Shown: positions 1,528 through 64,000, numbered from the stretch's first letter. The stretch: 64,000 nucleotides of DNA from Bacilli bacterium (GCA_028691715.1 JAQUYR010000001.1:22307-86306), one strand, 5' to 3'. The notes: generated by a model not told the origin, from the sequence alone. Made by a program: numbers and translations.

Positions 1528-1528
1528 A

Positions 1529-6252: not shown

Positions 6253-6317
6253 CTCTATCTTTTATTATAACATTAATCATATTTATATAAAAGCGTTTTT
6301 TTCTTAAAAATATGGCT

Positions 6318-6349
6318 TAAAAAAAGAAAAAGCACTAATTATTTAGTGC
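6318..6349 (-). terminator. Rho-independent terminator of the PI-PLC-like gene
   Basis: Minus-strand hairpin GCACUAA-AUAA-UUAGUGC (6332-6349, overlaps stop codon) followed by UUUUUCUUUUUUU. Confidence 0.5.
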
Positions 6350-7437: not shown

Positions 7438-7448
7438 GTTTTCCTCCT

Positions 7449-22289: not shown

Positions 22290-22784
22290 CTATATATTAA
22301 CAATTACTACTTCTTTTTTTTCATATGTTTTTTTAACATCTATTATTCTCTGATTCGTACTTCCACGATATTTAATATCCAAACTCTTCTTTTCCTCGAC
22401 AAACTCACCATCAACAATCCAGTCAACATTTTCTAAGAGTTGTGATATGTTTGGTATTTTAACAATCTTTTCAAATTCATATCCCGTATACATCATTACA
22501 TTTAGTTTTCTTTCTTTAGCTTTTTTTGCCAGAATTGCACACTTACTCCATTGTAAAATTGGTTCTCCTCCAGAAATGGTAATCCCTGATAACAGTGGAT
22601 TACTATCAACCATCTCCATAATATCATCAATACTCATTTTAAATCCACCATTGATGTCATGAGTTTCTGGATTGTGGCATCCTTTACAAGCATGATAACA
22701 TCCCTGAGTAAATATTGTAAGTCTGAGCCCTGGACCATCAACTATTGAGTCGTTTATTATACCGGCTATTCTAATTAAATCCAT
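22290..22784 (-). CDS. nrdG: Anaerobic ribonucleoside-triphosphate reductase activating protein (radical SAM)
   Basis: 164 aa; CYHACKGCHNP cluster motif typical of NrdG. Overlaps the nrdD stop. Confidence 0.85.
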   Translation of the reverse strand: MDLIRIAGIINDSIVDGPGLRLTIFTQGCYHACKGCHNPETHDINGGFKMSIDDIMEMVDSNPLLSGITISGGEPILQWSKCAILAKKAKERKLNVMMYTGYEFEKIVKIPNISQLLENVDWIVDGEFVEEKKSLDIKYRGSTNQRIIDVKKTYEKKEVVIVNI

Positions 22785-25080
22785 GTTTTACTCTCTCTTT
22801 AACCTCTTGGAATTTAGCATCATTAAAGCGATCCAAGGTTCCAACAAGATATCCCGTTATTCTTCTGATCCTTTCAAACTTGATTTTTCCTTCAGTTCGT
22901 CCACATTTTGGGCAAACATCATTAATTATTCCATTATAACCACAGACAGGATCTCTATCAATTGGATGATTTACTGAACCATAACCGATTTTTTCATCAT
23001 GCATACATCTGATAATTTTTTCAAAAGCTTCAACATTATTAGCGATATCACCATCCACTTCTACATAGGTGATATGTCCAGCATTTGTCAGCTCATTGTA
23101 AGGAGCTTCTTTTTTTATCTTATTGTATATAGAGATATCATAATACACTGGTATATGAAAAGAGTTCGTATAAAATTCTCTATTTGTTACGCCTTCAATA
23201 CTACCATACTTCTTTTTGTCTATTTTAACAAATCTTCCCGATAAGCCTTCAGCTGGAGTAGCTAAAAGAGTGAAGTTCAATTGGTATTTCTCAGTATACT
23301 CATCACATTTCTTTCTCATAAATTTGATTATCTCTAAACCCAATTTTTGTGCTTCATCACTCTCCCCATGATGACATCCAATCAAACATTTTAAGGCCTC
23401 AGCTAGACCAATAAAACCAATCGAGAGTGTTCCGTGTTTTAAAACCTCACGGATTTCATCTCCTGTTTCTAATTTATCGGAATCAAGCCATATTCCCTGA
23501 CCCATTAAAAAGGGAAAATTATAGACCTTTTTTTGGCATTGAATTGCAAATCTCTCTAGAAGTTGATCTTTTACCAGATTCATCAAATATTCTAAGCGTT
23601 TATAGAAATCATCTATATTTCTATTTTCCAAAGCAATTCTTGGCAAGTTTATTGAAGTAAAACTCAGATTTCCTCTTCCACAGGTTATCTCTTTTTCTTT
23701 ATCAACGTTTGCTAGAACCCTTGTTCGACAGCCCATATAAGCAACTTCGCTGTTATAATCCCCTTTTTTATAATATTTTAAATTATATGGAGCATCTATG
23801 AAAGAGAAGTTGGGAAACAATCTCTTCCCCGATGTATAAATAGCTTTTTTAAATAAATCATAATTTATATCTTCTTTATTATAATTTATCCCCTCTTTTA
23901 CCTTAAATATTTGAATGGGAAATATCGGTGTTTCCCCGTCACCAAGCCCTTTTAGAGTTGCTTCAAGAAGACAATCGACTACCATTCTTCCCTCTTCTGA
24001 TGTATCAGTACCATAATTTAAGGAACTAAATGGAACCTGTGCTCCAGCTCGCGAATGCATCGTATTTAGATTATGAATTAGCGCTTCCATTGCTTGAAAA
24101 GTATCATCCCATGTTTCCTCACAAGTGTATTTGATTATTTTAGGATACAAATTTTTGATATCTACTTGGGGATATTCTTTTGATAATTCAACAATCATGA
24201 AATCATCAAAGGTTGGATTTTTTAATCTCAAATCCTCTTTAGAGACCTCTAAAACCTTGTTTATTGTAATCTTAAGATCATCAATGGTAAGATTATCAAC
24301 AAACAAAGAGAGTACTTTATATAAATTTTTCTGATAATTTTTTTTATATGTTTTTCTAACTCCATCAGCCATGGCATAATCAAAATTAGGAATGCTCTGA
24401 CCACCGTGTTGGTCATTTTGATTAGCCTGAATCGCAATACAAGCAAGCGAAGCATAGCTCCTGATACTATTGGGTTCTCTGATATAGCCATCTCCAGTTG
24501 AAAAACCATCCTTAAATAGTTTTATTAAATCCATCTGACAACATGTCATTGTTAAAGAATAGAAATCGAGATCGTGGATATGGATATCGCCATTGATATG
24601 GGCTTTAGAAAAAGCAGGGTTAATCACTTCTTGTAAATAGAACTCCTTTGCTGATTCACTACCATATTTTAACATGGTTCCCATAGCGGTATTCCCATCA
24701 ATATTAGCATTTTCTCTTAAAACATTGCTCTCTTTAGAATCACTAAAGGTTATTTCTCTGAGAGTCTTCATCAGTCTTGTTTTCGAATCACGAATCCTCG
24801 TTCTTTCTGCCCGATATAAAATATATTCTTTGGCAATATCAGAATGATTTTCCATAATCAAAGTTTTTTCGATTTCATCCTGAATCTGTTCAACTGTTGG
24901 GATTGTTTCTCCATATTTCTGATCTAAAATATGAATTACCTTATCCGTTATTTCCTCAGAAACTTTATTTGTTTCAAAAGTTGTTTTATTAACAACTTCG
25001 CTGGCCTTCTTGATGGCATTGAATATTTTATTCTGGTCAAATAAAACCTTTCTTCCATCTCTTTTAACAATGTACTTCAT
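22771..25080 (-). CDS. nrdD: Anaerobic ribonucleoside-triphosphate reductase (class III)
   Basis: 769 aa; N-terminal ATP-cone (VKRDGRKVLFDQNKI), C-terminal glycyl-radical region and Zn-ribbon CPKCG. RBS GGAGG 6 nt upstream. Confidence 0.9.
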   Translation of the reverse strand: MKYIVKRDGRKVLFDQNKIFNAIKKASEVVNKTTFETNKVSEEITDKVIHILDQKYGETIPTVEQIQDEIEKTLIMENHSDIAKEYILYRAERTRIRDSKTRLMKTLREITFSDSKESNVLRENANIDGNTAMGTMLKYGSESAKEFYLQEVINPAFSKAHINGDIHIHDLDFYSLTMTCCQMDLIKLFKDGFSTGDGYIREPNSIRSYASLACIAIQANQNDQHGGQSIPNFDYAMADGVRKTYKKNYQKNLYKVLSLFVDNLTIDDLKITINKVLEVSKEDLRLKNPTFDDFMIVELSKEYPQVDIKNLYPKIIKYTCEETWDDTFQAMEALIHNLNTMHSRAGAQVPFSSLNYGTDTSEEGRMVVDCLLEATLKGLGDGETPIFPIQIFKVKEGINYNKEDINYDLFKKAIYTSGKRLFPNFSFIDAPYNLKYYKKGDYNSEVAYMGCRTRVLANVDKEKEITCGRGNLSFTSINLPRIALENRNIDDFYKRLEYLMNLVKDQLLERFAIQCQKKVYNFPFLMGQGIWLDSDKLETGDEIREVLKHGTLSIGFIGLAEALKCLIGCHHGESDEAQKLGLEIIKFMRKKCDEYTEKYQLNFTLLATPAEGLSGRFVKIDKKKYGSIEGVTNREFYTNSFHIPVYYDISIYNKIKKEAPYNELTNAGHITYVEVDGDIANNVEAFEKIIRCMHDEKIGYGSVNHPIDRDPVCGYNGIINDVCPKCGRTEGKIKFERIRRITGYLVGTLDRFNDAKFQEVKERVKHGFN

Positions 25081-25125: not shown

Positions 25126-25199
25126 AAAAATGCGAAAATAGTATAAAAATATTCTCGTATTTCTCAAATCCCAGGAGAAATTAAATAATTTCTTTTAAA

Positions 25200-25335
25200 A
25201 GGCAAGTCTACCGGCTTAATTTCATTTTACTCACCAGCCTTCCCATAGTTTCCTACAGTGGCGTAAATTGGTTTTCATCGATAACACGGTTGCTGGGACA
25301 GCTTAGGCCTGATACCTAATTCCTTTTTAAACAAA
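25200..25335 (-). promoter_or_regulatory. Cobalamin (B12) riboswitch aptamer in the nrdDG leader
   Basis: Minus strand reads ...CGCCACUGU (B12 box; plus ~25255-25263) ...GGGAAGGCUGGUGAG... AAGCCGGUAGACUUGCC (3' end; plus 25201-25217). The 3' end matches the canonical AAGCCAGGAGACCUGCC. The segment is distinctly GC-richer than flanking DNA. Confidence 0.55.
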
Positions 25336-25421
25336 AGTCAGTTAATCTAATCTTTTGTACCTTTTATGCCATTATATGCTTACTATTGCCTCAAGTCAAT
25401 ATGAAAACATATTTACATTTT

Positions 25422-49721: not shown

Positions 49722-52307
49722 TTATTTAGTATAGATTAGATAAGATTCTGCTTGGTAAATGCTTATTTCCAAGACATTTAAATACTCTTGTAAAGTATAT
49801 GTATCATATCTGAATGTAAATTCATAATTCAATTGATCTTTATAAAAAGTTCTAGCAACGTTATATATAGTACCAAGTTCAGCTGATAAAGGAACATATA
49901 TATCATCGATAACAGTCATTTCATCCTCTGTAAGTAATGTAGTATCTTCATCAGCAAGATAAAGTTGAATTTCTTCAAGTGTAGGAATTATTCTTTCTCC
50001 TTCATCACCAATTCTAGTCATATCATAACATTTAATATTAATATATATTTGATATCCATCTTCACTCTTAATATATTTTGGATCCTCAGAAGTTCCATAT
50101 ATTTCCGGCTCTTCTGATTCTGGATTCTTATCCCAAATATATTTGGCAGCAGCATCGATTTCTTCTCCATATGTTCCGCCAGCAAAGACATCTAGATCTA
50201 TGCTATAAATTTTTATACCAGCAGTTTTATACTTAGACATCTCTATTCCCGCAAAACTTGAATTTGCTGGGCTGGTTTCATCGCCTAATAGATATGGGGC
50301 AATGTTATAGGCGTAAATAAGAGCATTAATGTTTTCTTCATAATTTGCTGGATTAATTTCAATATACTTTAATATTTCTAGATAGAATTCTTCGACTAAA
50401 GCTTTTTGCTCATCTGTCCAAGTGCTTGGATCGGTTCCCCTCTCATCAGCACCTTCGTAAGTAATTAGAACAGTCCAGGCGTCAACCTTGAAATATGTAT
50501 CGGCAATCTCTTGCATTTTTTCCTTGAAATATCTCCATAAGTCAGAATCTTCGCTGACACCAGTTAGGTCACTCGTGTTATTGATATAGGTATTCATCAA
50601 GTCACGGCGTAAATATAACAAGGCTAATTCTTTTTCTGTTCTAACACCATATGCCTCCATTAGGAAGTTTTCCCATCCATAACTTGCTGGATATCCATAT
50701 TGTGTATAATCATCAGATAAGAAATTATCCTTTTCCAAAGCGACATCGGAAACCATTGCTTCCCAAACATCTTCATTAAGAACTCTTTTACTATCATCAT
50801 CTGTTTTCATCTGTAAATCATATACATTATTAATATTTAAATCATATAAAAAGTTGTGATAATTTACAAGTTCTATAGCTACATATGGCCCATATGAATA
50901 ATCTAAATCCAAAAACATCTGTTCTTTTGTATACATACCGATTAATGCTGAATTATCGTTTTTATCAGTAATGTCCATAACAGCTACATATGTTTCATGA
51001 TTCCTTGCAGCTTCAGTTACTTTCTTATCAAAAAGATTGTTGTATGAATACTGTATATAACCATCATATATTACTAGATTGTGTAGCCATCTAATATATG
51101 CCATTTCTTCGTCAATCTCGCCATCAGTCAAATCTTCCATTACCATTTCTGATACAATGCCTTCTTTAGCTTCTTCGTATGTGATTGGCTCGATTTCTTT
51201 GATATTCAATATAAGATAATTTACATCGTTAAAGACTTGAACTCTTGGAGTATACCAACTCGCATTCTCAACACTATTATCAGTAGTATATGATGACATA
51301 GTGTTAATATATGTTGATAAGTCACTACTAAGTTGTGTTAATTCTTTTCCAGTATAATATAGTTGACTACTGGTGTCCTCAGTATTAAAGACTATTTTAT
51401 CATCAACAATATTGTAGTCAGTGCCTTCTTCTATTTCAAGGACTGTTTGAGCATCAGCTTTCTTAACCATTGTTTTATTATATAAATCAATGAATACCTG
51501 GGTTATTTCCTTTGTTGTAGCCACATTCCCTGTTTCATCGTTGATCCATTTGTTGTAATCACCTTCAACAGAGCTATCTGCAGGGCTTATTGTATATCCA
51601 AGTTGAGCTAAAGTATTCTCAATTTCTAGATAGCTGTTAAAAGGAATTATTATGCTCCAGAAAGAGCTAAGATAATTTTCTTTATAAAAAGTTTTCTTTT
51701 CTCCTTCAGTAAAAGGATCAGCCTGTTTTAACAGAGTATAATAATCAGTTACACACTTATATTTAGCAAGTTTTAAATGGTGATATTCTATTAAATCATC
51801 AAATTTTCGATAACCATGGCTATAAGAATCAAGAAGATAATTCTTTTGAAGAATTTCCATAACCTCTTCATCAGTATAATTAGCCGTTCCATCAGTAAAA
51901 TAATAAGCAATCATATCATCAATAATTTCTTCATCAGTAACTTGATCCCAGTAAGTGATATCGCTAATGTCTAAAAATTCTTCGCTTGTCTTAGATAGTT
52001 TCTTATAAAGATCTCTTTTACTGAAATTTTTCAAAATTGTTTTATCCGACCAATTAATGACAGCATCAATTCCCGCTTGATTGCGCAAATTAATATACAT
52101 TTCATCAACAGTAATATCATATGATAAAGTTCCTTGCTTTACTGTCATATAAGTCTCTTGACCTTCAGCAAGAATTTGTTCTGGATTATCTTCTATTTCA
52201 GGAGTAGGTTTGCATCCATCGCAACCAGCCATACAAAAGATTCCTAATATTGTGATTATTAATAATAAAATTTTTTTCATCGTCACTCGCTCCTTATTTG
52301 GGTTCAA
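49722..52307 (-). CDS. Large lipoprotein of unknown function
   Basis: 861 aa; lipobox ...ILGIFCMAGCDGC after MKKILLLIITIL (ORF-track N-term extended). Acidic, Tyr/Asp-rich, no recognisable catalytic motif. 9 nt downstream of the DUF2779 gene. Confidence 0.5.
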   Translation of the reverse strand: MNPNKERVTMKKILLLIITILGIFCMAGCDGCKPTPEIEDNPEQILAEGQETYMTVKQGTLSYDITVDEMYINLRNQAGIDAVINWSDKTILKNFSKRDLYKKLSKTSEEFLDISDITYWDQVTDEEIIDDMIAYYFTDGTANYTDEEVMEILQKNYLLDSYSHGYRKFDDLIEYHHLKLAKYKCVTDYYTLLKQADPFTEGEKKTFYKENYLSSFWSIIIPFNSYLEIENTLAQLGYTISPADSSVEGDYNKWINDETGNVATTKEITQVFIDLYNKTMVKKADAQTVLEIEEGTDYNIVDDKIVFNTEDTSSQLYYTGKELTQLSSDLSTYINTMSSYTTDNSVENASWYTPRVQVFNDVNYLILNIKEIEPITYEEAKEGIVSEMVMEDLTDGEIDEEMAYIRWLHNLVIYDGYIQYSYNNLFDKKVTEAARNHETYVAVMDITDKNDNSALIGMYTKEQMFLDLDYSYGPYVAIELVNYHNFLYDLNINNVYDLQMKTDDDSKRVLNEDVWEAMVSDVALEKDNFLSDDYTQYGYPASYGWENFLMEAYGVRTEKELALLYLRRDLMNTYINNTSDLTGVSEDSDLWRYFKEKMQEIADTYFKVDAWTVLITYEGADERGTDPSTWTDEQKALVEEFYLEILKYIEINPANYEENINALIYAYNIAPYLLGDETSPANSSFAGIEMSKYKTAGIKIYSIDLDVFAGGTYGEEIDAAAKYIWDKNPESEEPEIYGTSEDPKYIKSEDGYQIYINIKCYDMTRIGDEGERIIPTLEEIQLYLADEDTTLLTEDEMTVIDDIYVPLSAELGTIYNVARTFYKDQLNYEFTFRYDTYTLQEYLNVLEISIYQAESYLIYTK

Positions 52308-52316
52308 TACACCCGC

Positions 52317-54122
52317 TTATACTCCACATTTTTTTCTTATGCCCGCCAATACGACCACCATTGACCACGTATCCTGCGAACAATAAGTTATTAATTCTTG
52401 TCTTAATTCCTCTATTTTTTCTCTGTCTAAAACTTTAAATCGGGAATAAGCTACTATTGCTTCTGTTCCATTAGCAATTACTAAGTCCTTATATGATAAA
52501 TTAGAGAAAAGTGGTAGAACTTTTTTTATCGAATAACTTCCATGAAGCCCGTTATGATAATAGTTAACTCTCTTGCTTTCTCTTTCATCGAAACCCAGTG
52601 CCTGATATAAAGAAGATCTACTCTTAACAATATCCATCAAATCAAAGATGCTATCATTTATCTTTTGTAACTCTTTTTCATACTTTGGAAATATTTTGCT
52701 CAGCTCGCTTATCCTTGTATACTCATAGCTTTTATTATAAACCAGAACACTTCCACCATTTGTCAAGTCTATGAGTCTTATTAATTCCTTGACTAATTCT
52801 TCTCGGCAGTCATTGAAATCCTTTGCTAGAAAGGAATAACGATCTTTTATAAAGTCACATTCACCTGGTTTTTTTTCAATATGTAAAGAAAATTGGAATA
52901 AAGATTGAGAATAGGGATTTTCTCCAAAAAACCTTGGTAATGGTCCAGGAAAGCCTTCAAAATCCAAATGATATATCGGATAACGAAGTTCATCTAATCC
53001 CAACAATATTTTTCTTTCGTCAATATACTCACAATTTCTATCAAAACAGTCTCTTTGTATCAGTTTATTATCATCTTTTAACCAAGTATATGGAACATCG
53101 CCTAGACTATAATACTCTAAATTAATCATTTTTTCAAGAGAATATTTATTTTTATCTTCGTCGATAAACTCCTTTTTCCCAATTGTTTCCAAAATGGAGC
53201 CACTCTCTTTAAGTCTTTTCCAGCATACAGGAAAATAATGGCATTCATCAGTCTTCTTTACTCGACAATCAGGAACCATTTTATATGGTGTAAGCTTGCA
53301 TTCTTCGATATATCTAACAATCTTCTGTCTGTTTTTTTCAATCTCTGGTAAATATTGAGATGTAACTTCTGTTAGATCGATAAAGCAAATCAAATTTTCT
53401 CCATTTATCTGATTATAAATAGCATTCCCATTATCGTATTTGCCATCAAAAACATACTTGTTATTTAATACAGCTAGATAATACTTATAATTTTTATTCT
53501 CAGCCCTCTTATCACTGTTTTCAATGATATATCTCTCAATAGCAATATCAAAAACATACTTGCCAACTTCGTTATAGCGATCAAAAAGTTTCTCATATGA
53601 AGATAACAATTTCTCACTATCCTCAAAATTATTCCTGATTTTCAAAACTCCATCATCATCAATAAACAAACTGAAAAATTCTTTTTTTTCAGTATAACCC
53701 ATTTTTCTGAACTTCGAAGTTGTCGTTGCTTTTACTTCAATTACTATCGCTTCATTCTCATTTTCAAAATAACCATCTAAATAACTATAATATGTGTGCC
53801 CCTTTTCATCAGTGAATGAAAACTTCATCTGATCTTTTGTTGATTCCTTATATTCAAAATGACCATCGAATGTTTTATTTGCCTGGATAATTGCTTCTCT
53901 TTCAACATCTTTGTAAAAATCAAGCATTGCTTCAGTTTGAGCATCAACTTTAAATAATTCATCTCCTGTTTCAAAATCAAACATCGACGATAAAATGTCG
54001 ATGATATCATCTTCCTCGTAATCCCCGATTTCACTATCAAGCTTCTTTAAATATATTTGATCCAGCGGGTAATACCTATGGCATTTTGTATATTTTTTAA
54101 ACTGCGTCTTCGAAATGTTCAT
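52317..54122 (-). CDS. DUF2779-type protein: PD-(D/E)XK (Cas4-like) nuclease domain fused to RNase H-like/DnaQ-like exonuclease domain
   Basis: 601 aa; MNISKTQFKKYTKC... N-terminus characteristic of DUF2779. D...EAIVIEVK PD-(D/E)XK core, Cys cluster CRVKKTDECHYFPVC. C-terminal YHLDFEGF...YCSQDTW exonuclease-like motifs; SIKKVLP conserved tail. Confidence 0.6.
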   Translation of the reverse strand: MNISKTQFKKYTKCHRYYPLDQIYLKKLDSEIGDYEEDDIIDILSSMFDFETGDELFKVDAQTEAMLDFYKDVEREAIIQANKTFDGHFEYKESTKDQMKFSFTDEKGHTYYSYLDGYFENENEAIVIEVKATTTSKFRKMGYTEKKEFFSLFIDDDGVLKIRNNFEDSEKLLSSYEKLFDRYNEVGKYVFDIAIERYIIENSDKRAENKNYKYYLAVLNNKYVFDGKYDNGNAIYNQINGENLICFIDLTEVTSQYLPEIEKNRQKIVRYIEECKLTPYKMVPDCRVKKTDECHYFPVCWKRLKESGSILETIGKKEFIDEDKNKYSLEKMINLEYYSLGDVPYTWLKDDNKLIQRDCFDRNCEYIDERKILLGLDELRYPIYHLDFEGFPGPLPRFFGENPYSQSLFQFSLHIEKKPGECDFIKDRYSFLAKDFNDCREELVKELIRLIDLTNGGSVLVYNKSYEYTRISELSKIFPKYEKELQKINDSIFDLMDIVKSRSSLYQALGFDERESKRVNYYHNGLHGSYSIKKVLPLFSNLSYKDLVIANGTEAIVAYSRFKVLDREKIEELRQELITYCSQDTWSMVVVLAGIRKKCGV

Positions 54123-56011: not shown

Positions 56012-56027
56012 TGTAACATTTGTTACA
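56012..56027. promoter_or_regulatory. CRP/FNR-type operator TGTAA-CATTTG-TTACA
   Basis: Perfect 5-N6-5 inverted repeat. Overlaps +1 of the crp-like promoter, and sits at about -41.5 relative to a TATAAT -10 of the divergent SBP-permease operon. Confidence 0.45.
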
Positions 56028-56040
56028 GAAAGGAAACGAT

Positions 56041-56652
56041 ATGAACGTTTACACTCATCCTTTTCTATTGGGGCATTCTATTGATTGCAACAGATATATT
56101 ACCATCAAACATTATAAGAAGGGTGATATTATCCATTCTGAAGGAGATATTTGTGATCATTTATCCCTGGTTTCTTTAGGAAATGTTTCTGTTTCTACAT
56201 ATACTTATTCGGAAAAAGAGTATTCAATAGCCAGCATTAACTCTGGTGGAATATTCGGACAGTTCTTACTCTTCTCCGATAATCCCCATTTCCTTGGTAA
56301 TGTTATAGCAACCACTAAAGCAACGATAATCAGAATAAATAAAGATAACTTATTAAGAATGTTAAGTGAGGATAGAGTTATTTTAACAAACTTCTTAGGA
56401 ATAGTAGCAACTTCTTTTATTTCTATTCAAGAGAGAGTAAAAATTCTATCTCAGAAATCGATAAAAGACAGCATTATGTTCTACATAAATGAGATAACAA
56501 AAAAGACAAAGCAAAAAACAATTTATATCAAGAGCAAAGAAACTTTAGCAAAATATCTAAACATTCCCAGGCCTTCACTTTCACGTTCTTTGATCGCCCT
56601 AAAAAAAGAGGGGCTTATCAGTATTAATGGAAAATATATTACAAAAATATAA
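56041..56652 (+). CDS. Crp/Fnr family transcriptional regulator (cNMP-binding domain + C-terminal HTH)
   Basis: ORF track uses TTG at 56020; ATG at 56041 has AAAGGAAA RBS. Beta-roll cNMP-binding region and HTH LAKYLNIPRPSLSRSLIALKKEGLI. No FNR-type N-terminal Cys cluster. Confidence 0.8.
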   Translation: MNVYTHPFLLGHSIDCNRYITIKHYKKGDIIHSEGDICDHLSLVSLGNVSVSTYTYSEKEYSIASINSGGIFGQFLLFSDNPHFLGNVIATTKATIIRINKDNLLRMLSEDRVILTNFLGIVATSFISIQERVKILSQKSIKDSIMFYINEITKKTKQKTIYIKSKETLAKYLNIPRPSLSRSLIALKKEGLISINGKYITKI

Positions 56653-56653
56653 A

Positions 56654-56694
56654 AAGCATAAATCAAAAATATGATTTATGCTTGTTTTTTTTAT
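56654..56694. terminator. Bidirectional terminator between crp-like gene (+) and hydA (-)
   Basis: 12-bp perfect stem AAGCAUAAAUCA/UGAUUUAUGCUU with U-runs on both strands. Confidence 0.7.
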
Positions 56695-58526
56695 TTAGAA
56701 TACTTTTCACGTTTAATATAATGAGTGTGTAATAGATGATGGGATACATGTCCACAAGGCTCTTTCAAGAATTCATCATATAAACGTATAACCTCTGGAT
56801 TTTTATGAGATTCTCTCAGTTTAGATGTATCATCAATGCCATAAATAGCTTTTGCTCTTTCTTTTCTGACATCGATCTTATCTTGAACTTTAGCACTAAT
56901 TACTGGTTGTCCACCACCATTAACGCATCCTCCCGTACATCCCATAACTTCAATAAAGGCGTATTGTTTTTCACCTTTCTTGATTTTTTCGAACATTTCT
57001 GGAACATTAACTGTACCATGAACAACAGCGAAATTTAAATCCAGACCATTAATATTTAGTGTGGCTTCTTTGATACCATTTTCTGTACCACGAACTTCAC
57101 TAATTACAACATCTTTCATATCCTTCTTCTCTAAAAGTTCTTTGACTGTTCGTAATGCTGCTTCCATAACTCCACCAGTAACGCCGAAGATTGCTCCAGC
57201 ACCAGTATATTTTCCAAATGGACTTTCGATTTTAGCATCAGGAAGCTCTCTGAAGTTGATATCTTGACGTTTAATCAGTCTTGCTAATTCTCTTGTTGTT
57301 AAAACATAGTCAACATCGCGTAAACCATCTACTTCCATCTCTGGACGATGAGCTTCAAATTTCTTAGCGATACAAGGCATAATTGAAACAACTTTAATCT
57401 TTTCTTTAGCGATTCCAATCTTATCTGCATAATAATGTTTTATCAAAGCTCCTTGCATTTGTTGAGGAGATTTGCAACTAGAAAGATTCTTTAAATATTC
57501 AGGATAATATGTTTCAATATATCTAATCCATCCTGGAGAACAAGAAGTAAGCAGTGGTAAAGCAACTTCCTCTTTGTTTAAAAACTTAGTAAGTCTTTGA
57601 ATAAGCTCTGTTCCTTCTTCCATGATAGTAACATCGGCAGCAAAATTGGTATCAGTAACATCATCAAATCCTAATTCCTGAAGGGCTTTATACATTTTGC
57701 CTTCAACATTAGTTCCAATTGGATAATCAAATTCTTCTCCTAAGGCAGCTCTAACTGATGGAGCAGTTTGAGCTATAACATAGTATTCTTTCTTTTCTAA
57801 CAACTCAATGACAGAATCAACATCATCTTTCTCTTTGATAGCGCCAACTGGGCAAGCTTGAATACACTTACCACAGAAGATACATCCAGAGTCTTCCATG
57901 TTGTGATTAAGTGCTGGTCCAACATATGTTTCAAAACCACGGTTATTAAAATCTAACACCTTAGTTCCTGCTAATTTTTCACAAGCACCTACGCATCTTC
58001 CACAAAGAATACATTTTGAACTATCTAAAACAATTGAATCAGTGATATTTAAAACTGCTTCTTTTGTTGAGAAAGTATTGTTTTCGCCTATAACATTAGG
58101 AATGTTATATTTTCTTAATAGATGTAACAATTCACAATTATGTTCACGAGGACAGCGCCAGCATTCAAATCGATGATTAGCAGCGATTAATTCTAAATTG
58201 TTTTTAACTGTTTTCTTAACTCTTTCAGTGTTTGTTCTAACAACTACAGAATCAGCTCCACGGCCTAAGCACTCTCTTACTTTAACAGTACAAGAGTTTT
58301 TTAATGTCCTAATTCCTTCTATTTCAACAACGCAAATACGACAAGCTGAAGTTTCATTGATACCCTTTAAGAAACAAAGACGAGGAATATCAACACCAGC
58401 AGCATAGGCAGCATCCATGACAGTATAATCGCCAGGTACTTCTACAACCTTGTTGTTTATGATTACTTTTATTAAATCACTCATATCTATTCCTCCTAAG
58501 CCGTAATAATAGCATTCTTTGGACAA
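56691..58526 (-). CDS. hydA: [FeFe] hydrogenase catalytic subunit HydA (M3-type; L1 motif variant TSCSPGW)
   Basis: N-terminal [2Fe-2S] (CRICVV), His-ligated [4Fe-4S] (HRFECWRCPREHNC), two ferredoxin-like CxxCxxCxxxCP motifs. H-cluster motifs L2 MPCIAKKFE and L3 EVMGCTGGCVNGGGQP. Likely true start ATG at 58484 (MSDLIKV, AGGAGG RBS); ORF track uses upstream TTG. Confidence 0.9.
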   Translation of the reverse strand: MSKECYYYGLGGIDMSDLIKVIINNKVVEVPGDYTVMDAAYAAGVDIPRLCFLKGINETSACRICVVEIEGIRTLKNSCTVKVRECLGRGADSVVVRTNTERVKKTVKNNLELIAANHRFECWRCPREHNCELLHLLRKYNIPNVIGENNTFSTKEAVLNITDSIVLDSSKCILCGRCVGACEKLAGTKVLDFNNRGFETYVGPALNHNMEDSGCIFCGKCIQACPVGAIKEKDDVDSVIELLEKKEYYVIAQTAPSVRAALGEEFDYPIGTNVEGKMYKALQELGFDDVTDTNFAADVTIMEEGTELIQRLTKFLNKEEVALPLLTSCSPGWIRYIETYYPEYLKNLSSCKSPQQMQGALIKHYYADKIGIAKEKIKVVSIMPCIAKKFEAHRPEMEVDGLRDVDYVLTTRELARLIKRQDINFRELPDAKIESPFGKYTGAGAIFGVTGGVMEAALRTVKELLEKKDMKDVVISEVRGTENGIKEATLNINGLDLNFAVVHGTVNVPEMFEKIKKGEKQYAFIEVMGCTGGCVNGGGQPVISAKVQDKIDVRKERAKAIYGIDDTSKLRESHKNPEVIRLYDEFLKEPCGHVSHHLLHTHYIKREKYSK

Positions 58527-60292
58527 GCAACTTTACATGCTCCACACTTAATACAAATGCTAGTATCAATTTTATGCATTTCTTTAATATTACCTGTAAT
58601 CGCACCAACAGGACATCCTCGTTTACATTTACCGCAACCGATACAATTTTCAGTAATATAATATTTGATCAAAGCTTTACATACGCCAGCTGGACATTTT
58701 TTGTCAACAACATGGGCAATATATTCATCTCTAAAATTCTTTAATGTTGAAAGAACAGGATTTGGAGCTGTTTGTCCTAATCCACAAAGAGCAGAATCCT
58801 TGATTGATAGAGCTAAAGCTTCTAATTCATCAATATCTTCTAATGTTCCATCACCATTTGTAATCTTTTGTAAGATTTCAAGCATTCTTCTTGTTCCCTC
58901 GCGACATGGAGTACATTTACCACATGATTCATCAACTGTGAATTCCAAAAAGAATCTGGCAACATCTACCATACAGTTATCTTCATCCATAACTATCATA
59001 CCACCGCTACCCATCATTGATCCTAGAGCAATTAGGTTATCATAGTCAATCTTGGTATCCAAATCTCTGAATGTTAAACATCCACCTGATGGTCCACCGG
59101 TTTGAACCGCTTTGAAAGCTTTTCCTTTAGGAATACCACCACCGATGTTATAAATAACATCTCTAAGAGTAGTACCCATAGGTATTTCAAGCAATCCTGT
59201 ATTGTTAATCTTGCCACCTAAGGCAAAAACTTTTGTTCCTTTTGATTTTTCTGTACCGATAGTACTAAACCATTCAGCTCCCTTATTAAGAATCTGAGGA
59301 ATATTTGCATAAGTTTCTACATTATTAATAATTGTTGGTTTTCCCCATAATCCTTTATCAGCTGGAAATGGTGGTTTATTTCTAGGCATTCCCCGTTCTC
59401 CTTCAATAGAAGCCATAAGGGCTGTTTCTTCTCCACAAACAAACGCACCTGCACCTAATCTTGCTTCTAAATCAAATGAAAAGTCAGTGCCAAATATATT
59501 TTTACCTAATAAGCCATTTTCATAGGCTTGTTTAATAGCAAAATTTAATCTCTCTACAGCTAGTGGATACTCAGCTCTGATATAGACATATCCTTGGCTT
59601 GCTCCAATAGCATATCCGCCAATTGCCATAGCTTCAATTACACTGTGAGGATCTCCCTCTAAAACAGCACGATCCATAAATGCTCCTGGATCTCCTTCAT
59701 CAGCATTACAAATAATATACATTTGTCCTTCACCGCGATGTTTAGATGCCAATTTCCATTTTAAACCAGTAGGGAATCCGCCTCCGCCTCTTCCTCTTAA
59801 TCCTGATTTTAGAATTTCATCAATGATTCCATCAGGAGTCATTTCCGTTAAGGCCTTTCCTAAAGCCATATAACCATCACGGGCGATATATTCATTAATA
59901 TCAAAAGGATTGATTATACCACAATTTCTTAAAGCTATACGTTCTTGCTTAGCATAAAAATTCATTTCCTGGAATTTCTTGATTTTGACTTCATCTTCTG
60001 GAGTCATTTCTGTATATGCTTTTCTAGCAACAATTCTTCCCTTTAACAAATGTTCCTTACAAATTTCTTCAACATCTTCAACTTTCATATGTGAGTAGAA
60101 AGTCATATCAGGATAGACAACAACAACTGGTCCTTTTTCACAAAGACCAAAGCATCCGCTCATAAAAACAGCTACTTCATCCTGTAAATCCAATTCTTTT
60201 ATCTTTTCTACAAATTGATTTTTAATGGCTTCTGATTTTGAAGACATACAGCCTGTGCCACCACAGACAACTACTTGCGCTCTAATTGCCAT
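58496..60292 (-). CDS. hydB: NADH-binding flavoprotein subunit HydB (NuoF-like, with N-terminal Trx-like [2Fe-2S] and C-terminal 2x[4Fe-4S])
   Basis: 598 aa; N-terminal CGGTGC...CFGLC; FMN/NADH-binding core; C-terminal CIGCGKCKRGCP and CIKCGACKVACP. Confidence 0.9.
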   Translation of the reverse strand: MAIRAQVVVCGGTGCMSSKSEAIKNQFVEKIKELDLQDEVAVFMSGCFGLCEKGPVVVVYPDMTFYSHMKVEDVEEICKEHLLKGRIVARKAYTEMTPEDEVKIKKFQEMNFYAKQERIALRNCGIINPFDINEYIARDGYMALGKALTEMTPDGIIDEILKSGLRGRGGGGFPTGLKWKLASKHRGEGQMYIICNADEGDPGAFMDRAVLEGDPHSVIEAMAIGGYAIGASQGYVYIRAEYPLAVERLNFAIKQAYENGLLGKNIFGTDFSFDLEARLGAGAFVCGEETALMASIEGERGMPRNKPPFPADKGLWGKPTIINNVETYANIPQILNKGAEWFSTIGTEKSKGTKVFALGGKINNTGLLEIPMGTTLRDVIYNIGGGIPKGKAFKAVQTGGPSGGCLTFRDLDTKIDYDNLIALGSMMGSGGMIVMDEDNCMVDVARFFLEFTVDESCGKCTPCREGTRRMLEILQKITNGDGTLEDIDELEALALSIKDSALCGLGQTAPNPVLSTLKNFRDEYIAHVVDKKCPAGVCKALIKYYITENCIGCGKCKRGCPVGAITGNIKEMHKIDTSICIKCGACKVACPKNAIITA

Positions 60293-60301
60293 AATTTCCT
60301 C

Positions 60302-60670
60302 CTACTTCAAGAACTTAGTTATTAGTAAGTCTTCAACAACTTTTCCACCAATAACGTGTTCTGAGATTATTCTTTCGGCATCCTTTGCCTTAACCTTGCA
60401 GTATGTTGTTCTATTTCCAGCAGCATCATATACTTCTACAATTGGTTCTAGGGCACATTGTCCCATACAGCCAACTTGTGTAACTGTTGTATTCAATAGA
60501 TTTCTCTTAGAAACTTCTTCGACCAAAGCGTTAAGGACTGGTCTTGCTCCTGCTGTAATTCCACATGTAGCCATACCAACAACTACTCGATATCCATCTT
60601 TTTGTTGACGCATGCTCATCTTTTGAGCAGCGGCTTCTCTAATTTTCTTTAAATCTTCTAAAGATTTCAT
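60302..60670 (-). CDS. Thioredoxin-like [2Fe-2S] ferredoxin
   Basis: 122 aa; four Cys (ATCG...GCMGQC...YCK) in NuoE/HydD-like spacing. Confidence 0.7.
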   Translation of the reverse strand: MKSLEDLKKIREAAAQKMSMRQQKDGYRVVVGMATCGITAGARPVLNALVEEVSKRNLLNTTVTQVGCMGQCALEPIVEVYDAAGNRTTYCKVKAKDAERIISEHVIGGKVVEDLLITKFLK

Positions 60671-61218
60671 AGTTCCTCCTCTTTAATAGACTGCAAACCC
60701 TCTCTTATATAATCCTTAATCCATATCATTACATCGATTTGCTTCAAGGATACACCATCAAGAATTTGTTTTATTTCTTTTGTATCAAAAGTAAATTTTT
60801 TATTATTGTATAAATGATTGTAGACAATGTCAATGTCTTCATCATTTATAACTAAAATATAAATAGTTTCAACAATATCACCGAGTGGTGGTCGATCAAT
60901 ATTGTCATATTCAAAGGTTCCTGTTAGTCTTGTACCAATTCCTTCTTGGGATTCTATATGAAAACTACCCAAGCATGTTTCACATAACTCTTTAAATAAA
61001 GGGATTCCCATTCCCACTTTCCTTGTCTTTCGACTGGTAAAAAAGGGATCCGTTACTTTTTCAAGAGTTTTATCACTCATTCCTATACCATCATCAATAA
61101 TTTCTACAATCAAAATATTATTCTGAATGTCTTCATTAATATTAATAACTATATTTTTACTTTTAGCCTTAATAGAATTCTGAACAATATCAAGAATATA
61201 TAGAGATAGTTCATTCAT
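60667..61218 (-). CDS. Small GHKL-type (histidine-kinase-like) ATPase
   Basis: 183 aa; N-box/G1 IIDDGIGM, G2 GMGIPL, G3 GTRLT. No sensor, DHp or receiver domain. Overlaps neighbours by 4-8 nt. Confidence 0.7.
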   Translation of the reverse strand: MNELSLYILDIVQNSIKAKSKNIVININEDIQNNILIVEIIDDGIGMSDKTLEKVTDPFFTSRKTRKVGMGIPLFKELCETCLGSFHIESQEGIGTRLTGTFEYDNIDRPPLGDIVETIYILVINDEDIDIVYNHLYNNKKFTFDTKEIKQILDGVSLKQIDVMIWIKDYIREGLQSIKEEEL

Positions 61219-61927
61219 GATTTTTCTCCAAATACTCTCTGAATCCCTTAAATGATAATTCAGTGAGTTCTAGATAATTGATTCTCTCATTAATAATTTC
61301 TAAAGAATGAGCATCTGAGTTATAGATTATTGGTAACTTTTTCAAGTATGGATATTTTTTAATTACTTCTTCAGTATTTTCCTTACCATATATCTCAATA
61401 CCATCTATATCAAACACACCTAGGTCTTGATATACATTTAGCATCCAGCATTCACCACGGTTTACATGTGCTAAGATAACAATTCCCTCTAAACTATGAA
61501 CTTTTTCTATTAGTTCTTTTAATGTTATATCTAGGGGATAATTTAAGTGATATTCTATTTCCTTTATTTTTAAATCATACTCATCAAAAATATCCTGTGA
61601 TCCGAATTTATCCCTGTCGTGAGGTTCTTTGGTGTTTATATCTTCTAAAATCTTATCAAATAGAAGGGCTTTTTCCAAAGTTTCAAAATATGTCAATACA
61701 TGAAATCCCTCTTTAACTGTAACTTCACAGCCATATAGAAATAAAAAGTCATAACTGGATATAATTTTTTGAAATGTTGGTAAATGTTTTAGAGTATTAT
61801 GATCGGTAATGCTGATCATATTTAACCCTTTTAACATCGCCATATTTAAAATATTATTTGGTGTTTGTAATTCATCAGCACAAGCAGAAAGTGTCGAATG
61901 AATATGAATATCATAATATACTTTCAT
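61211..61927 (-). CDS. PHP-domain phosphoesterase
   Basis: 238 aa; MKVYYDIHIHSTLSACAD...ISITDHNT PHP motif I/II histidines, further His/Asp ligands downstream. Confidence 0.75.
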   Translation of the reverse strand: MKVYYDIHIHSTLSACADELQTPNNILNMAMLKGLNMISITDHNTLKHLPTFQKIISSYDFLFLYGCEVTVKEGFHVLTYFETLEKALLFDKILEDINTKEPHDRDKFGSQDIFDEYDLKIKEIEYHLNYPLDITLKELIEKVHSLEGIVILAHVNRGECWMLNVYQDLGVFDIDGIEIYGKENTEEVIKKYPYLKKLPIIYNSDAHSLEIINERINYLELTELSFKGFREYLEKNHE

Positions 61928-62252
61928 ATTCCCAAATCAGTTTCAGCGTGTCAGCGCTTGATAAACTCGTTTTAAATAGTGGAATATTCTCACTATTAGC
62001 TTTAACAACGATTTCTTCATTAGGGGTAACATCTTCACAAAAAATGACCGCAGAAAAATCTAATAAAACCGCAACAGCTACGACATTCAAACTATTTAGT
62101 ACCGTCAGCAGTACTGTGTTTTCCTCTTTTGCATGCCCCATGACCCAACTCAGCAAATCCGAAACATACATTCCTTTTATCGGCTTTGTTAAATCAACAT
62201 TTGGTGTTATGCATTCGATTTCTTCTATTTTCACTAGATCCTTTACTATCAT
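61911..62252 (-). CDS. DRTGG-like domain protein (paralog of 62667-63041)
   Basis: 113 aa; alignable with the upstream 124-aa DRTGG protein (shared LV..., SDLLS, VAVLL..., terminal segments). Confidence 0.45.
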   Translation of the reverse strand: MIVKDLVKIEEIECITPNVDLTKPIKGMYVSDLLSWVMGHAKEENTVLLTVLNSLNVVAVAVLLDFSAVIFCEDVTPNEEIVVKANSENIPLFKTSLSSADTLKLIWEYESIL

Positions 62253-62259
62253 AAACCAC

Positions 62260-62667
62260 CTATAAATTAAAGATAATTGTTACTATAGTTCCCTCTTCAC
62301 TGGATTTAATATCGAATTCATCACAAGATTTACGAATATTAGGAAGTCCCATTCCTGCACCAAAACCATTTTCTCGGGCAAATAATGAAGCCGTCGAAAA
62401 TCCTTCTGACATTGCTGCATCGATATTCTTTATACCTGGACCTTTATCAGAAAAGACCATCTTCAACTTATCCTTGGTATATTCAATATCACAAGTTCCT
62501 CCAAAGGAATGAATAACAACATTTATTTCTGCTTCGTATGTTGCTATAGAAACCCTTCTTACTATAATTTTACTAACATTATCGGCTACTAATAATCTCT
62601 TCACAAAACTGGAAATATATCCAGCCTGTTCTAGATTCATTGGTAAAATCTCAAACGAATAGTTCAT
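62260..62667 (-). CDS. GHKL ATPase of the anti-sigma-factor/Ser-kinase-like type
   Basis: 135 aa; GPGIKNID...GFGAGMGLPNI resembles G1/G2 boxes of RsbW/SpoIIAB-like kinases. Confidence 0.5.
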   Translation of the reverse strand: MNYSFEILPMNLEQAGYISSFVKRLLVADNVSKIIVRRVSIATYEAEINVVIHSFGGTCDIEYTKDKLKMVFSDKGPGIKNIDAAMSEGFSTASLFARENGFGAGMGLPNIRKSCDEFDIKSSEEGTIVTIIFNL

Positions 62668-63041
62668 TATATTTCACTAATGCCTTTTATACCTGCTTCA
62701 TACATTTTTCCGTTAGAAGAAAACATAGTATATGAAGTTCCAAGCATAATGATATCATTTTCTTCAGCTGCTAAAACTACTTGATCTGTTGGTTTCTTAT
62801 CTCTAACTAATAAAACTACTTTCACATCAAGCATCTCAGCTGTTCTGACACCTTGAATAGTAACCAATCCTGTTGATAAAATTCCTTCTTCACAAAACTC
62901 CAGAGGAACATTTCTTAGCATCATCAAAGCATCACTCATCAAATCACAACTAAATGCAAAATTTACTTGTCGATCAGGATTATATGTTTTAGTTGTATAA
63001 ACTGTAGCGTTTAATAGTTTAACCAATTCACTTAGTTTCAT
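62667..63041 (-). CDS. DRTGG domain protein
   Basis: 124 aa; fold-level resemblance to DRTGG domains (as in CBS-DRTGG and Pta N-terminus). Confidence 0.5.
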   Translation of the reverse strand: MKLSELVKLLNATVYTTKTYNPDRQVNFAFSCDLMSDALMMLRNVPLEFCEEGILSTGLVTIQGVRTAEMLDVKVVLLVRDKKPTDQVVLAAEENDIIMLGTSYTMFSSNGKMYEAGIKGISEI

Positions 63042-63042
63042 A

Positions 63043-63528
63043 TTATTTTTCCATTAATTTTCTTAGTGCTTCTCTAGCTATTGTTGGATTAGAACTGCCG
63101 TAGACATTACCATCAATAGTGAATACTGGGGCTAAACCACATGCGCCAATACATCTTGTTGCTTCTAATGTAAACTTACCATCTTCTGTTGTTTCGCCTG
63201 GTTTGACTTTTAAAACGTCAGACATAGCGTCAATGATAGATTGCGAGCCACGAACATAACAAGCAGTACCTAAGCATACACTGATTACATGTTGTCCCTT
63301 AGGTTCTATTGAAAAATGAGAATAGAAAGTAACAACACCATTGATTTTTGCAATGCTTTCATCAAGCTCTTCAGCAATGATTTTTTGTACTGCTAATGGA
63401 ATACATCCAAATATCTTTTGAGCATCGTGTAATGTTGGCATTAATGGACCTGGTTTTTTCTTGTGTTCTTGAATTCTCTCTTTAAGTTCTTTAACCTGTT
63501 CGTCATTCATAACAAATTTAACTGCCAT
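63043..63528 (-). CDS. hydC: NuoE-like [2Fe-2S] subunit HydC
   Basis: 161 aa; CLGTACYVRG...CIGACGLAP NuoE-type motif. First gene of the operon. Confidence 0.85.
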   Translation of the reverse strand: MAVKFVMNDEQVKELKERIQEHKKKPGPLMPTLHDAQKIFGCIPLAVQKIIAEELDESIAKINGVVTFYSHFSIEPKGQHVISVCLGTACYVRGSQSIIDAMSDVLKVKPGETTEDGKFTLEATRCIGACGLAPVFTIDGNVYGSSNPTIAREALRKLMEK

Positions 63529-63608
63529 AATTTTTCACTCCTTTTTGCTATTATATATTTTAACACTTTTGACCACGAAAATAAATGTTTTTTTAACTTT
63601 TGTTTTCG

Positions 63609-64000
63609 TTAGTTAAGAGCTGTTAATGTTGAATTGAAGTTGTAAATCTTTGATACACCATCATAAGTCACGGTTACCTGATATTCTATATTCGCTTCAG
63701 CACCAGACTTACTGATAATTTCACCATTGTCATTCATAATTGTTGGTGACAAACTCTTCCATTCAAAAGTAACACCAGATAGATTATTCTTTGCAAAATA
63801 CTCCAGTTGTACTAAGAACATAAATTCATCCCAACGACCAGCATGCCTCATTGCCATTGGACAATCTTTTCCTGAAAAGGCATTGTGCTGTTTAACTCTA
63901 TCAAATCCTAAATTATACTGAATTAATAATTCAGCAACCAATTTTGCTGTGTGTCTCATCGTATTGTTATACTCTGATCCAGCATCAACACAAGTTTCAA
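63609..64000 (-). CDS. N-acetylmuramoyl-L-alanine amidase (amidase_2/PGRP type), partial: N-terminus beyond window end
   Basis: In-frame continuation upstream of the ORF-track Met (...TCVDAGSEYNNTMRHTAKL...). QHNAFSGKDCP matches the C-terminal Zn-ligand region (H-x7-K-x-CP) of amidase_2. Confidence 0.55.
   Translation of the reverse strand, partial: ETCVDAGSEYNNTMRHTAKLVAELLIQYNLGFDRVKQHNAFSGKDCPMAMRHAGRWDEFMFLVQLEYFAKNNLSGVTFEWKSLSPTIMNDNGEIISKSGAEANIEYQVTVTYDGVSKIYNFNSTLTALN

Follow-up and report, generated by a model that had tools for sequence, protein, structure and literature searches.

A HydS-less variant of the group D hydrogenase accessory module in a HydABC-type operon of a Bacilli bacterium

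Why are the genes of a bifurcating-type [FeFe]-hydrogenase held apart by six small genes that look like parts of a signalling device? The question is raised by a stretch of 64,000 nucleotides from a Bacilli bacterium (GCA_028691715.1, JAQUYR010000001.1:22307-86306), here called the window, in which positions 60,302 to 63,041 separate hydC from hydB and hydA. In order from hydC, the six genes encode a DRTGG-like protein (P2), a SpoIIAB/RsbW-type GHKL ATPase (P3), a second DRTGG-like protein (P4), a PHP phosphoesterase (P5), a second GHKL ATPase (P6) and a protein with thioredoxin-like (Trx-like) fold (P7). An earlier sequence-only reading had seen in the ATPase, the phosphoesterase and the duplicated DRTGG proteins what looked like a partner-switching-style device that could control the hydrogenase. 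Comparison with other genomes gives a different answer: the operon is a HydS-less variant of an accessory module that is known and uncharacterised, and not a new kind of system.

At least 595 genome loci carry relatives of P5, and the nine proteins of the operon were mapped by tblastn on 80 of them; where needed, loci are cited below by their L numbers. The exact nine-gene order recurs in 8 genomes of Acholeplasma, Izemoplasma and Anaeroplasma as well as in close metagenomic relatives with protein identities of 62-89%. Because the identical order recurs in this way, the arrangement is not due to chance, and the gene-neighbourhood check suggested at the outset has been run with a positive result. 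The interval between P3 and P4 was readable in 66 loci and was found to hold a gene of ~415-450 amino acids in 57 of them. At L010 Pfam analysis of this gene revealed two [4Fe-4S] motifs, an H-cluster domain (Fe_hyd_lg_C) and a C-terminal PF04060 iron-sulfur domain, with no PAS domain; precomputed Pfam annotation gives the same architecture for the interval genes of L081 and L082. On sequence grounds the interval gene is the group D (M2e) putative H2-sensing [FeFe]-hydrogenase HydS. The locus of Thermoanaerobacter mathranii A3 reads DRTGG, HATPase_c_2, a 435-residue HydS, DRTGG, PHP, HydC, HATPase_c, a 121-residue protein, HydB and HydA, and the residues C20, D378-C379 and D403-C404 of its 435-residue protein match those given for TamHydS (PMC13104023). 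This gene order makes P2 to P5 of the window the equivalent of the TamHydS flank, and their assignment as orthologs of the genes flanking HydS in Clostridia and Thermoanaerobacter is solid at the level of sequence and gene order. T. mathranii and L035 have Pfam-less proteins of 263 and 299 amino acids upstream of the module; as these lack conservation at other loci, they were rejected as members.

The distribution of the genes over these loci identifies two independent sets. P6 and P7 travel with hydC and hydB; P2 to P5 travel as a block, which may precede hydC, may stand between hydC and P6, or may run divergently from hydC-P6-P7-hydB-hydA. Within the block, the junctions from P2 to P3 and from P4 to P5 have a median of -1 nucleotide (66-67 loci), which suggests two coupled pairs, P2 with P3 and P4 with P5. 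The six genes thus do not stand as one device: P2 to P5 belong to the flank of HydS, and P6 and P7 correspond to HydE and HydD.

The latter correspondence is best seen in the hydC-hydE-hydD-hydB-hydA operon of Acetobacterium woodii. HydE resembles the ATP-binding domain of histidine kinases, did not copurify with the enzyme and has been proposed to serve 'assembly or signalling', while HydD is a small subunit without an evident cofactor site (PMC3315566). P6 and P7 lie in the same order between hydC and hydB as HydE and HydD, and the window differs in adding the four genes P2 to P5 between hydC and P6. By sequence, therefore, P6 and P7 are the HydE/HydD pair common in Firmicute hydCEDBA operons, which is known but unexplained, in agreement with the earlier remark that an ATPase resembling histidine kinases and a Trx-like gene occur in hyd operons without an assigned role. 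P6 matches HATPase_c (56.9 bits) and HATPase_c_3 (36 bits), keeps its ATP-binding motifs and has 2038 homologs, including a T. mathranii 'histidine kinase' at 53% identity; its AlphaFold2 model shows a Bergerat fold with a predicted local distance difference test score (pLDDT) of 88.6. A two-component histidine kinase was considered for both ATPases and rejected, as neither P3 nor P6 has any domain besides the ATPase (P6 with an 80-residue C-terminal extension) and neither HisKA nor Response_reg was matched. P6 is accordingly a second GHKL ATPase without DHp domain, as first described.

The other member of the pair had been called a Trx-like [2Fe-2S] protein. The fold is retained, with a 2Fe-2S_thioredx match of 25.4 bits that is barely above the cut-off of 24.8. 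Alignment with HydC and the N-terminus of HydB revealed glycine at the first cluster position, leaving three of the four canonical cysteine ligands (C-x4-C ... C-x3-C), and the same replacement was found in all 50 orthologs examined. Since only three of the four cysteines are kept, the [2Fe-2S] label is not secured; P7 and its orthologs may have no such cluster or may use a non-cysteine ligand. The three-cysteine pattern fits the A. woodii HydD, described as lacking a cofactor site (PMC3315566).

What sets the window apart is the absence of hydS. Both pairs of the group D module, DRTGG with HATPase_c_2 and DRTGG with PHP, are present next to hydCBA, and the gene that defines the module is absent within the window: P3 and P4 are separated by 7 nucleotides at the place where hydS sits elsewhere. 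A tblastn search of the 64-kb window with group D HydS returned only hydA and ferredoxin-like stretches of hydB, with no second hydrogenase or remnant. It had been stated that no PAS-containing sensory hydrogenase lies in the window. This holds in so far as there is no second hydrogenase, but the relevant missing gene is the PAS-less HydS between P3 and P4. In a neighbour-joining tree built on P2, P3, P4 and P5 together, the window and 8 Mollicutes loci form one HydS-less clade, which is sister to all HydS-bearing loci; from such a tree, loss of HydS and its never having been gained are indistinguishable for the Mollicute clade. L035 from Clostridiaceae is nested among HydS-bearing loci, and it alone is a clear case of independent, secondary loss.

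The 'sensory' label of the M2e enzymes dates from about 2010-2012, and it was given to them for lying near kinases and upstream of bifurcating hydrogenases (PMC3561251). The work on TamHydS mentions a flanking histidine-kinase-like ATPase (PMC8163306), and in a 2026 paper the interaction partners of HydS were still to be identified, which was named a critical next step (PMC13104023). The group D loci (TamHydS; also Cthe_0335, Csac_1857 and Teth39_1463) share with the window the series DRTGG, HATPase_c_2, DRTGG, PHP, HydC, GHKL ATPase, Trx-like protein, HydB and HydA, and they too adjoin a trimeric bifurcating-type hydrogenase (PMC3561251; PMC8163306). As published, only 'a histidine kinase-like ATPase' or 'protein kinases' were described there; the window differs from these loci in the missing hydS and in having hydC at the head of the operon. 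No literature naming DRTGG or PHP genes together with hydrogenases was found in a search of incomplete coverage. The group C (M2f) systems, which have a Ser/Thr kinase/phosphatase (HydS of Ruminococcus albus and of Thermotoga maritima, HfsB of Thermoanaerobacterium saccharolyticum), are similar in that a sensor with a presumed role in controlling H2 metabolism lies beside a bifurcating hydrogenase and genes of kinase-like and phosphatase-like type (PMC5707799; PMC3561251). They differ in having a PAS-bearing sensor, whereas the module in the window has neither PAS domain nor sensor gene. The T. saccharolyticum hfsABCD, considered as the same module, was set aside as a PAS-type group C system.

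The operon itself consists of nine head-to-tail genes on the minus strand, hydC, P2 to P7, hydB and hydA (Table 1), and this layout confirms that hydC is split from hydB and hydA by six small genes on the same strand. From hydC to hydB the junctions measure +1, -1, +7, -17, -8, -4 and +9 nucleotides. The 9 nucleotides reported between the Trx-like gene and hydB were recovered exactly, and the reported limit of 10 nucleotides holds at every junction but one, the 17-nucleotide overlap of P4 and P5. HydB carries an N-terminal Trx-like domain and a C-terminal pair of [4Fe-4S] motifs (Pfam), and HydA an H-cluster domain, a small-subunit motif and N-terminal iron-sulfur domains (Pfam/NCBIfam), scoring 790 bits against NCBIfam FeFe_hydrog_A6 (cut-off 765). 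With the domain sets of HydA, HydB and HydC, and with HydE- and HydD-like genes between hydC and hydB, the operon is of the HydABC trimeric type, and the domain architecture of HydB is of the bifurcating type, with electron bifurcation (NADH plus reduced ferredoxin to H2) as the putative activity of HydABC. The true start of hydA is likely the ATG at 58484 rather than 58526, which gives a protein of 597 amino acids, the same length as the L083 ortholog.

Table 1. Genes and terminator of the hydrogenase operon (window positions)
Feature	Position	Strand	Basis
hydC, NuoE-like [2Fe-2S] subunit, leads operon	63043..63528	-	Pfam 2Fe-2S_thioredx, 157.7 bits
P2, DRTGG-like small protein 'a', 124 aa, translationally coupled to P3	62667..63041	-	Family-level DRTGG match
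P3, SpoIIAB/RsbW-type GHKL ATPase, 135 aa	62260..62667	-	HATPase_c_2, 38.5 bits
P4, DRTGG-like small protein 'b', 113 aa	61911..62252	-	Hpr_kinase_N, 25.8 bits
P5, stand-alone PHP metal-dependent phosphoesterase, 238 aa	61211..61927	-	PHP, 31.6 bits
P6, GHKL ATPase without DHp, 183 aa, HydE equivalent	60667..61218	-	HATPase_c, 56.9 bits
P7, Trx-like fold, 122 aa, HydD equivalent	60302..60670	-	2Fe-2S_thioredx, 25.4 bits
hydB, NuoF-like flavoprotein	58496..60292	-	Complex1_51K, NADH_4Fe-4S, 2Fe-2S_thioredx and Fer4 matches
hydA, [FeFe]-hydrogenase catalytic subunit (start as called)	56691..58526	-	Fe_hyd_lg_C, 323.6 bits, and Fe_hyd_SSU
Bidirectional terminator hairpin, operon end	56654..56683	.	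12-bp stem, T runs on both strands

The hairpin after hydA is the sole convincing terminator and is shared with a convergent crp/fnr-family gene, while a ribosome-binding site and a TATAAT-like box are found upstream of hydC (63529-63600); we infer that the nine genes are co-transcribed. In a promoter scan, matches were no commoner than in shuffled sequence, and an internal TTGACA-17-TACAAT at 60833-60805 carries no weight. An Rfam search over the whole window returned no hyd leader RNA; its single match, a cobalamin riboswitch, is far away from the operon.

How might P2 to P5 work? The ATPase P3 exceeds the HATPase_c_2 cut-off of 27.4 bits with 38.5 bits, and its best NCBIfam match is SpoIIAB, the anti-sigma F factor, at 40 bits, which does not reach the equivalog cut-off of 135. 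Its description as an anti-sigma-type GHKL ATPase was upheld by these matches. It carries the N, G1 and G2 boxes of the HATPase_c_2 serine-kinase-type ATPases, and 67 orthologs share its E44-x3-N48-x3-H52, DxGPGI and GFGAGMGLPN motifs; a sequence search of the PDB with P3 alone gave no match. A full-library phmmer search returned 1125 homologs, and among the best 150 cluster representatives 59 stand alone, ~36 are fused to HydS, 34-38 carry an N-terminal CBS pair and ~11 are fused to a DRTGG domain, though some of the fusions come from metagenome-derived proteins and could be gene-calling artefacts. Fused forms sit within the same module. For instance, L088 has the order 113-residue protein, P3::HydS, 115-residue protein, PHP, P6, HydC, P7 and HydB, and L090 the order DRTGG, CBS::P3, HydS, DRTGG and rnfCDGEAB; for the CBS::P3 fusion P0243 the contig ends just upstream and the context is uninformative. 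These natural fusions with HydS, CBS and DRTGG make P3 the predicted hub of the module, which would contact a DRTGG partner and take its input from HydS or a CBS ligand sensor.

At L088, the region upstream of the P3::HydS module (2-3160) holds a second small pair, a 120-residue protein with a 138-residue HATPase_c protein. A sigma54-dependent NtrC-type response regulator is encoded there too, through which this lineage may have an output at the level of transcription.

The two presumed partners of P3 had been called DRTGG paralogs. The paralogy is well founded: aligned by hhalign, the P2 and P4 families match with 99.65% probability (E 5e-25, 111 columns), and by this measure they are true paralogs. 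The DRTGG label holds at the level of the families and less well for the window proteins themselves. P2 of the window has no Pfam match of its own, while DRTGG is matched by 16 of 20 orthologs and the family profile matches the DRTGG structure PDB 2IOJ (E 3e-5) and the DRTGG domain of CBS pyrophosphatase. P4 passes Hpr_kinase_N (25.8 bits, cut-off 24) and remains below the DRTGG cut-off (20.6 bits against 25.2); the L010 orthologs exceed the DRTGG (PF07085) cut-off. Invariant residues of P2 are D33, S36, D37, R80 and K82. A D-[LM]-[LM]-S motif is common to both families, its Asp and Ser being invariant in P2 (D33, S36) and conserved in P4, where the motif reads D-L-L-S, and its Ser is our best guess for a phospho-acceptor. 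Pta, CBS pyrophosphatase and HPr kinase have DRTGG domains in their regulatory portions, which makes the two proteins candidate readers of an input.

P5 was confirmed as a PHP phosphoesterase by its profile score (PF02811, 31.6 bits, cut-off 26.4), by a conserved metal-binding set (H8, H10, H43, E68, H76, H154, D205 and H207) and by the fold of its AlphaFold2 model (pLDDT 94). The nearest solved fold in a Foldseek search is the PHP domain of EndoQ, with an E value of 2e-11 and a template-modelling (TM) score of 0.70-0.73, followed by TM0559, BAD_1165, RNase AM, pAp phosphatase and polymerase PHP domains. Against the NCBIfam family of EndoQ itself (TIGR00375), P5 reaches 25.4 bits where the cut-off is 326.6. 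EndoQ is a protein of ~400 amino acids with a PHP domain, a zinc finger and a C-terminal helical DNA-binding domain; P5, with 238 amino acids, is the PHP domain only.

The neighbours of the module vary. With or without HydS, it lies directly upstream of rnfCDGEA at L035, L047, L055, L073, L074 and L090, and a minimal pair of DRTGG and P3::DRTGG (P0308) was found with no redox enzyme nearby. From these contexts it follows that the module is not hydrogenase-specific, and the proposal that it controls the hydrogenase has to be widened accordingly, as it also precedes rnf operons.

Two further arrangements were met among these loci. In three Clostridiaceae (L016, 5571-16128; L030; L077) the full HydS module precedes HydC, P6, P7 and HydB, and rnfCDGE comes immediately after them, with no HydA-type catalytic subunit; judging from the gene content, HydB and HydC may there have no hydrogenase partner other than the group D enzyme. 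L090 (397-16169) starts with a hydrogenase whose HydB, of 1039 residues, includes a fused GltD-like pyridine-nucleotide oxidoreductase; next come DRTGG, CBS::P3, a 506-residue HydS, DRTGG and rnfCDGEAB, without PHP and without P6.

The reading that we tentatively prefer, at slightly less than even odds, is that P2 to P5 form an ATP-driven, partner-switch-like regulator of NADH/ferredoxin enzymes, present here without its H2 sensor. The homology on which it is founded is solid as a matter of sequence and is held with much more confidence than the reading as a whole. Computation shows the order of the genes, their domains and folds, that they are orthologous to the flank of HydS and under purifying selection, and that there are fusions and an association with rnf; that P3 is a kinase, which residue accepts the phosphate, what P5 does, and what target and signal are involved is what we infer. 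P3 would be an ATP-dependent switch protein that binds a DRTGG partner and probably phosphorylates it on serine, the Ser of D-[LM]-[LM]-S being the best candidate. P5 would undo the modification or remove a nucleotide product. The resulting state would gate the adjacent NADH/ferredoxin enzyme, HydABC here and Rnf elsewhere, at the protein level. HydS (for H2) or a CBS pair (for adenine nucleotides) would be exchangeable inputs to P3 where they are present. As HydS is absent here, the device must read another signal, and in this Acholeplasma/Izemoplasma-like lineage the input would have to come from the DRTGG proteins themselves or from HydABC.

The likeness to the SpoIIAA/SpoIIAB/SpoIIE and RsbV/RsbW/RsbU switches consists in a small ATPase just after a small alpha/beta partner and in a metal-dependent phosphoesterase in the operon. 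The differences are DRTGG in place of STAS, PHP in place of PP2C, the lack of a sigma factor and the redox-enzyme neighbours, and phosphotransfer is putative here. Rv1364c is a multidomain protein with fused partner-switch parts, and parts of the module are likewise fused in other genomes. The earlier idea of a partner-switching-style device has gained from the SpoIIAB-type ATPase, the two paralogous partners, the phosphoesterase and the fusions of P3 with DRTGG, CBS and HydS, and it has lost from the fold of P5, which is closest to EndoQ, RNase AM and pAp phosphatases, from the versions of the module that do without PHP, and from the cluster ligand missing in P7.

Several observations weigh against the regulator. 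The hallmark of partner switches is missing, since no STAS domain was matched in P2 or P4; no SpoIIE/RsbU-type PP2C phosphatase is present among the operon genes, where P5 is the sole phosphoesterase; and no sigma factor or other output protein is found among the nine. The modelled fold of P5 is closest to nucleic-acid and nucleotide phosphoesterases and not to protein phosphatases: the PHP tyrosine phosphatases YwqE and CpsB are matched only with E values of 0.4-0.5 and TM scores of 0.36-0.40. Moreover, the PHP gene is absent from the module at L090 and from the minimal pair P0308, and for this reason it is not an obligatory reset enzyme. The absence of HydS, moreover, is established for the 64-kb window and for flanks of 8-10 kb on either side of the 8 Mollicutes loci and of L083 to L085, as distinct from whole genomes. 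To these are added the possible artefacts among the fusions mentioned above, and the saturation and the divergent loci mentioned below.

A wider claim, which we regard as doubtful, is that the module represents an unrecognised class of partner switch, with DRTGG for STAS, an optional PHP for PP2C, HydS or CBS inputs and direct post-translational gating of enzymes of NuoF/RnfC type (HydABC and Rnf). On that view the operon of the Mollicutes would represent a minimal form that occurs in nature, has no sensor and reads the energy or redox state of the cell via DRTGG.

Among the other explanations, the one that survives best, though we think it unlikely, is assembly or maturation: P3 and P6 would be GHKL clamp or chaperone ATPases of MutL- or Hsp90-like type, and the DRTGG and PHP proteins would aid cofactor insertion or the assembly of the HydABC/HydS complex. 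Structural comparison of P6 speaks for it, since over its full length P6 fits MutL, PMS2, MLH1 and TopoVI-B (170-230 columns, TM scores of 0.5-0.58) better than the CA domains of histidine kinases (~100 columns), in keeping with its HATPase_c_3 match. The genes also lie tightly coupled inside a structural operon, and for the A. woodii HydE, absent from the purified enzyme, assembly was one of the two roles proposed (PMC3315566). For P3 the comparison turns the other way, as it belongs to the SpoIIAB/RsbW subfamily with the E-N-H, G1 and G2 motifs, its CBS fusions point to ligand sensing, and the module occurs with rnf or, as the minimal pair, with no redox enzyme nearby.

Somewhat less probable still is control of expression, in which P3 would act as an anti-sigma factor or anti-activator sequestering a regulator encoded at a distance, and/or an EndoQ- or RNase AM-like P5 would process hyd mRNA, so that transcript levels are set. 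Regulation of the bifurcating hydrogenase is the role that published accounts foresee for M2e enzymes (PMC3561251; PMC8163306). In NCBIfam P3 matches an anti-sigma factor best, the nearest folds of P5 are nucleases and nucleotide phosphoesterases, a sigma54 NtrC-type activator stands just upstream of the fused module in one locus (L088), and the divergent arrangement of the module and hydC-P6-P7-hydB-hydA, seen in 12 loci, would also fit a transcriptional regulator. Nevertheless, none of the conserved genes of the module codes for a DNA-binding protein or a sigma factor; the convergent crp/fnr-family gene, examined as a conserved part of it, was rejected because it is common only to L014 and L083; P5 is without the zinc finger and C-terminal DNA-binding domains of EndoQ; and PHP is optional.

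That P2 to P5 are functionless passengers decaying after the loss of hydS is very improbable. The idea draws on the absence of the gene that defines the module elsewhere, but against the close relative L083 the six small genes have a ratio of nonsynonymous to synonymous substitution rates (dN/dS) of 0.07-0.13 and hydC, hydB and hydA one of 0.08-0.13, values that are rough because dS is 0.9-2.3, near saturation. P5 identity is only 38-45% across the HydS-less clade, with the open reading frames intact and the order kept, and an independent HydS-less copy stands next to rnf in Clostridiaceae (L035). As their dN/dS equals that of hydCBA and the catalytic motifs of P3, P5 and P6 are kept, P2 to P7 are under selection and not decaying. 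Hardly credible, finally, is a DNA-targeting or anti-phage system of an EndoQ-like PHP nuclease with MutL-like GHKL ATPases, for which the fold resemblance of P5 to EndoQ and of P6 to MutL/TopoVI-B would speak, as would P5 weakly matching, in NCBIfam, the PHP domain of Ppl, an anti-phage protein. These points are outweighed by a PADLOC run on the six proteins that gave no defence family and only a 15.7-bit Ppl match, by the place of the genes in a conserved metabolic operon, where HydS, hydCBA or rnf are their constant neighbours across hundreds of genomes, and by a context in which no mobile element was seen.

Some features of the surroundings are recorded here in their own right. At 56020-56691 of the window hydA abuts the crp/fnr-family gene, where L083 (14543-18969) has a zinc-ribbon protein and trkA/trkH between the two, an insertion or deletion of ~3.8 kb. 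An Amidase_2-type cell-wall amidase gene (63609-64000, minus strand) precedes the operon and is cut by the window end; L083 has four Amidase_2-type paralogs in a row (885-7601), two of them with aBig_2 domains. An open reading frame of 861 amino acids (49722-52307, minus strand), without Pfam match at E <= 1e-5, adjoins a DUF2779 protein (52317-54122). The cobalamin riboswitch (100 bits, 25184-25379, minus strand) lies directly upstream of a class III NrdD with ATP-cone (22771-25080, minus strand). NrdD is a B12-independent enzyme, so the riboswitch appears to put such an enzyme under B12 control.

For the group D sensors, the comparison nominates signalling partners: P3, for which dozens of protein clusters show a fusion with HydS, and, as constant neighbours, the PHP enzyme and both DRTGG proteins. 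It also indicates that the module can work without HydS, and beside Rnf as well as HydABC. The question thereby shifts from an H2 sensor acting on a hydrogenase to a general switch of NADH/ferredoxin enzymes with exchangeable sensors. As to how group D sensors signal and what they control, its comparative value lies in a short list of testable protein pairs and in small systems of two to four proteins. Bifurcating hydrogenases and Rnf set the balance of H2, ethanol and acetate in fermenters and in gut and rumen anaerobes, and a way of steering them, whether post-translational or regulatory, would therefore be of practical use.

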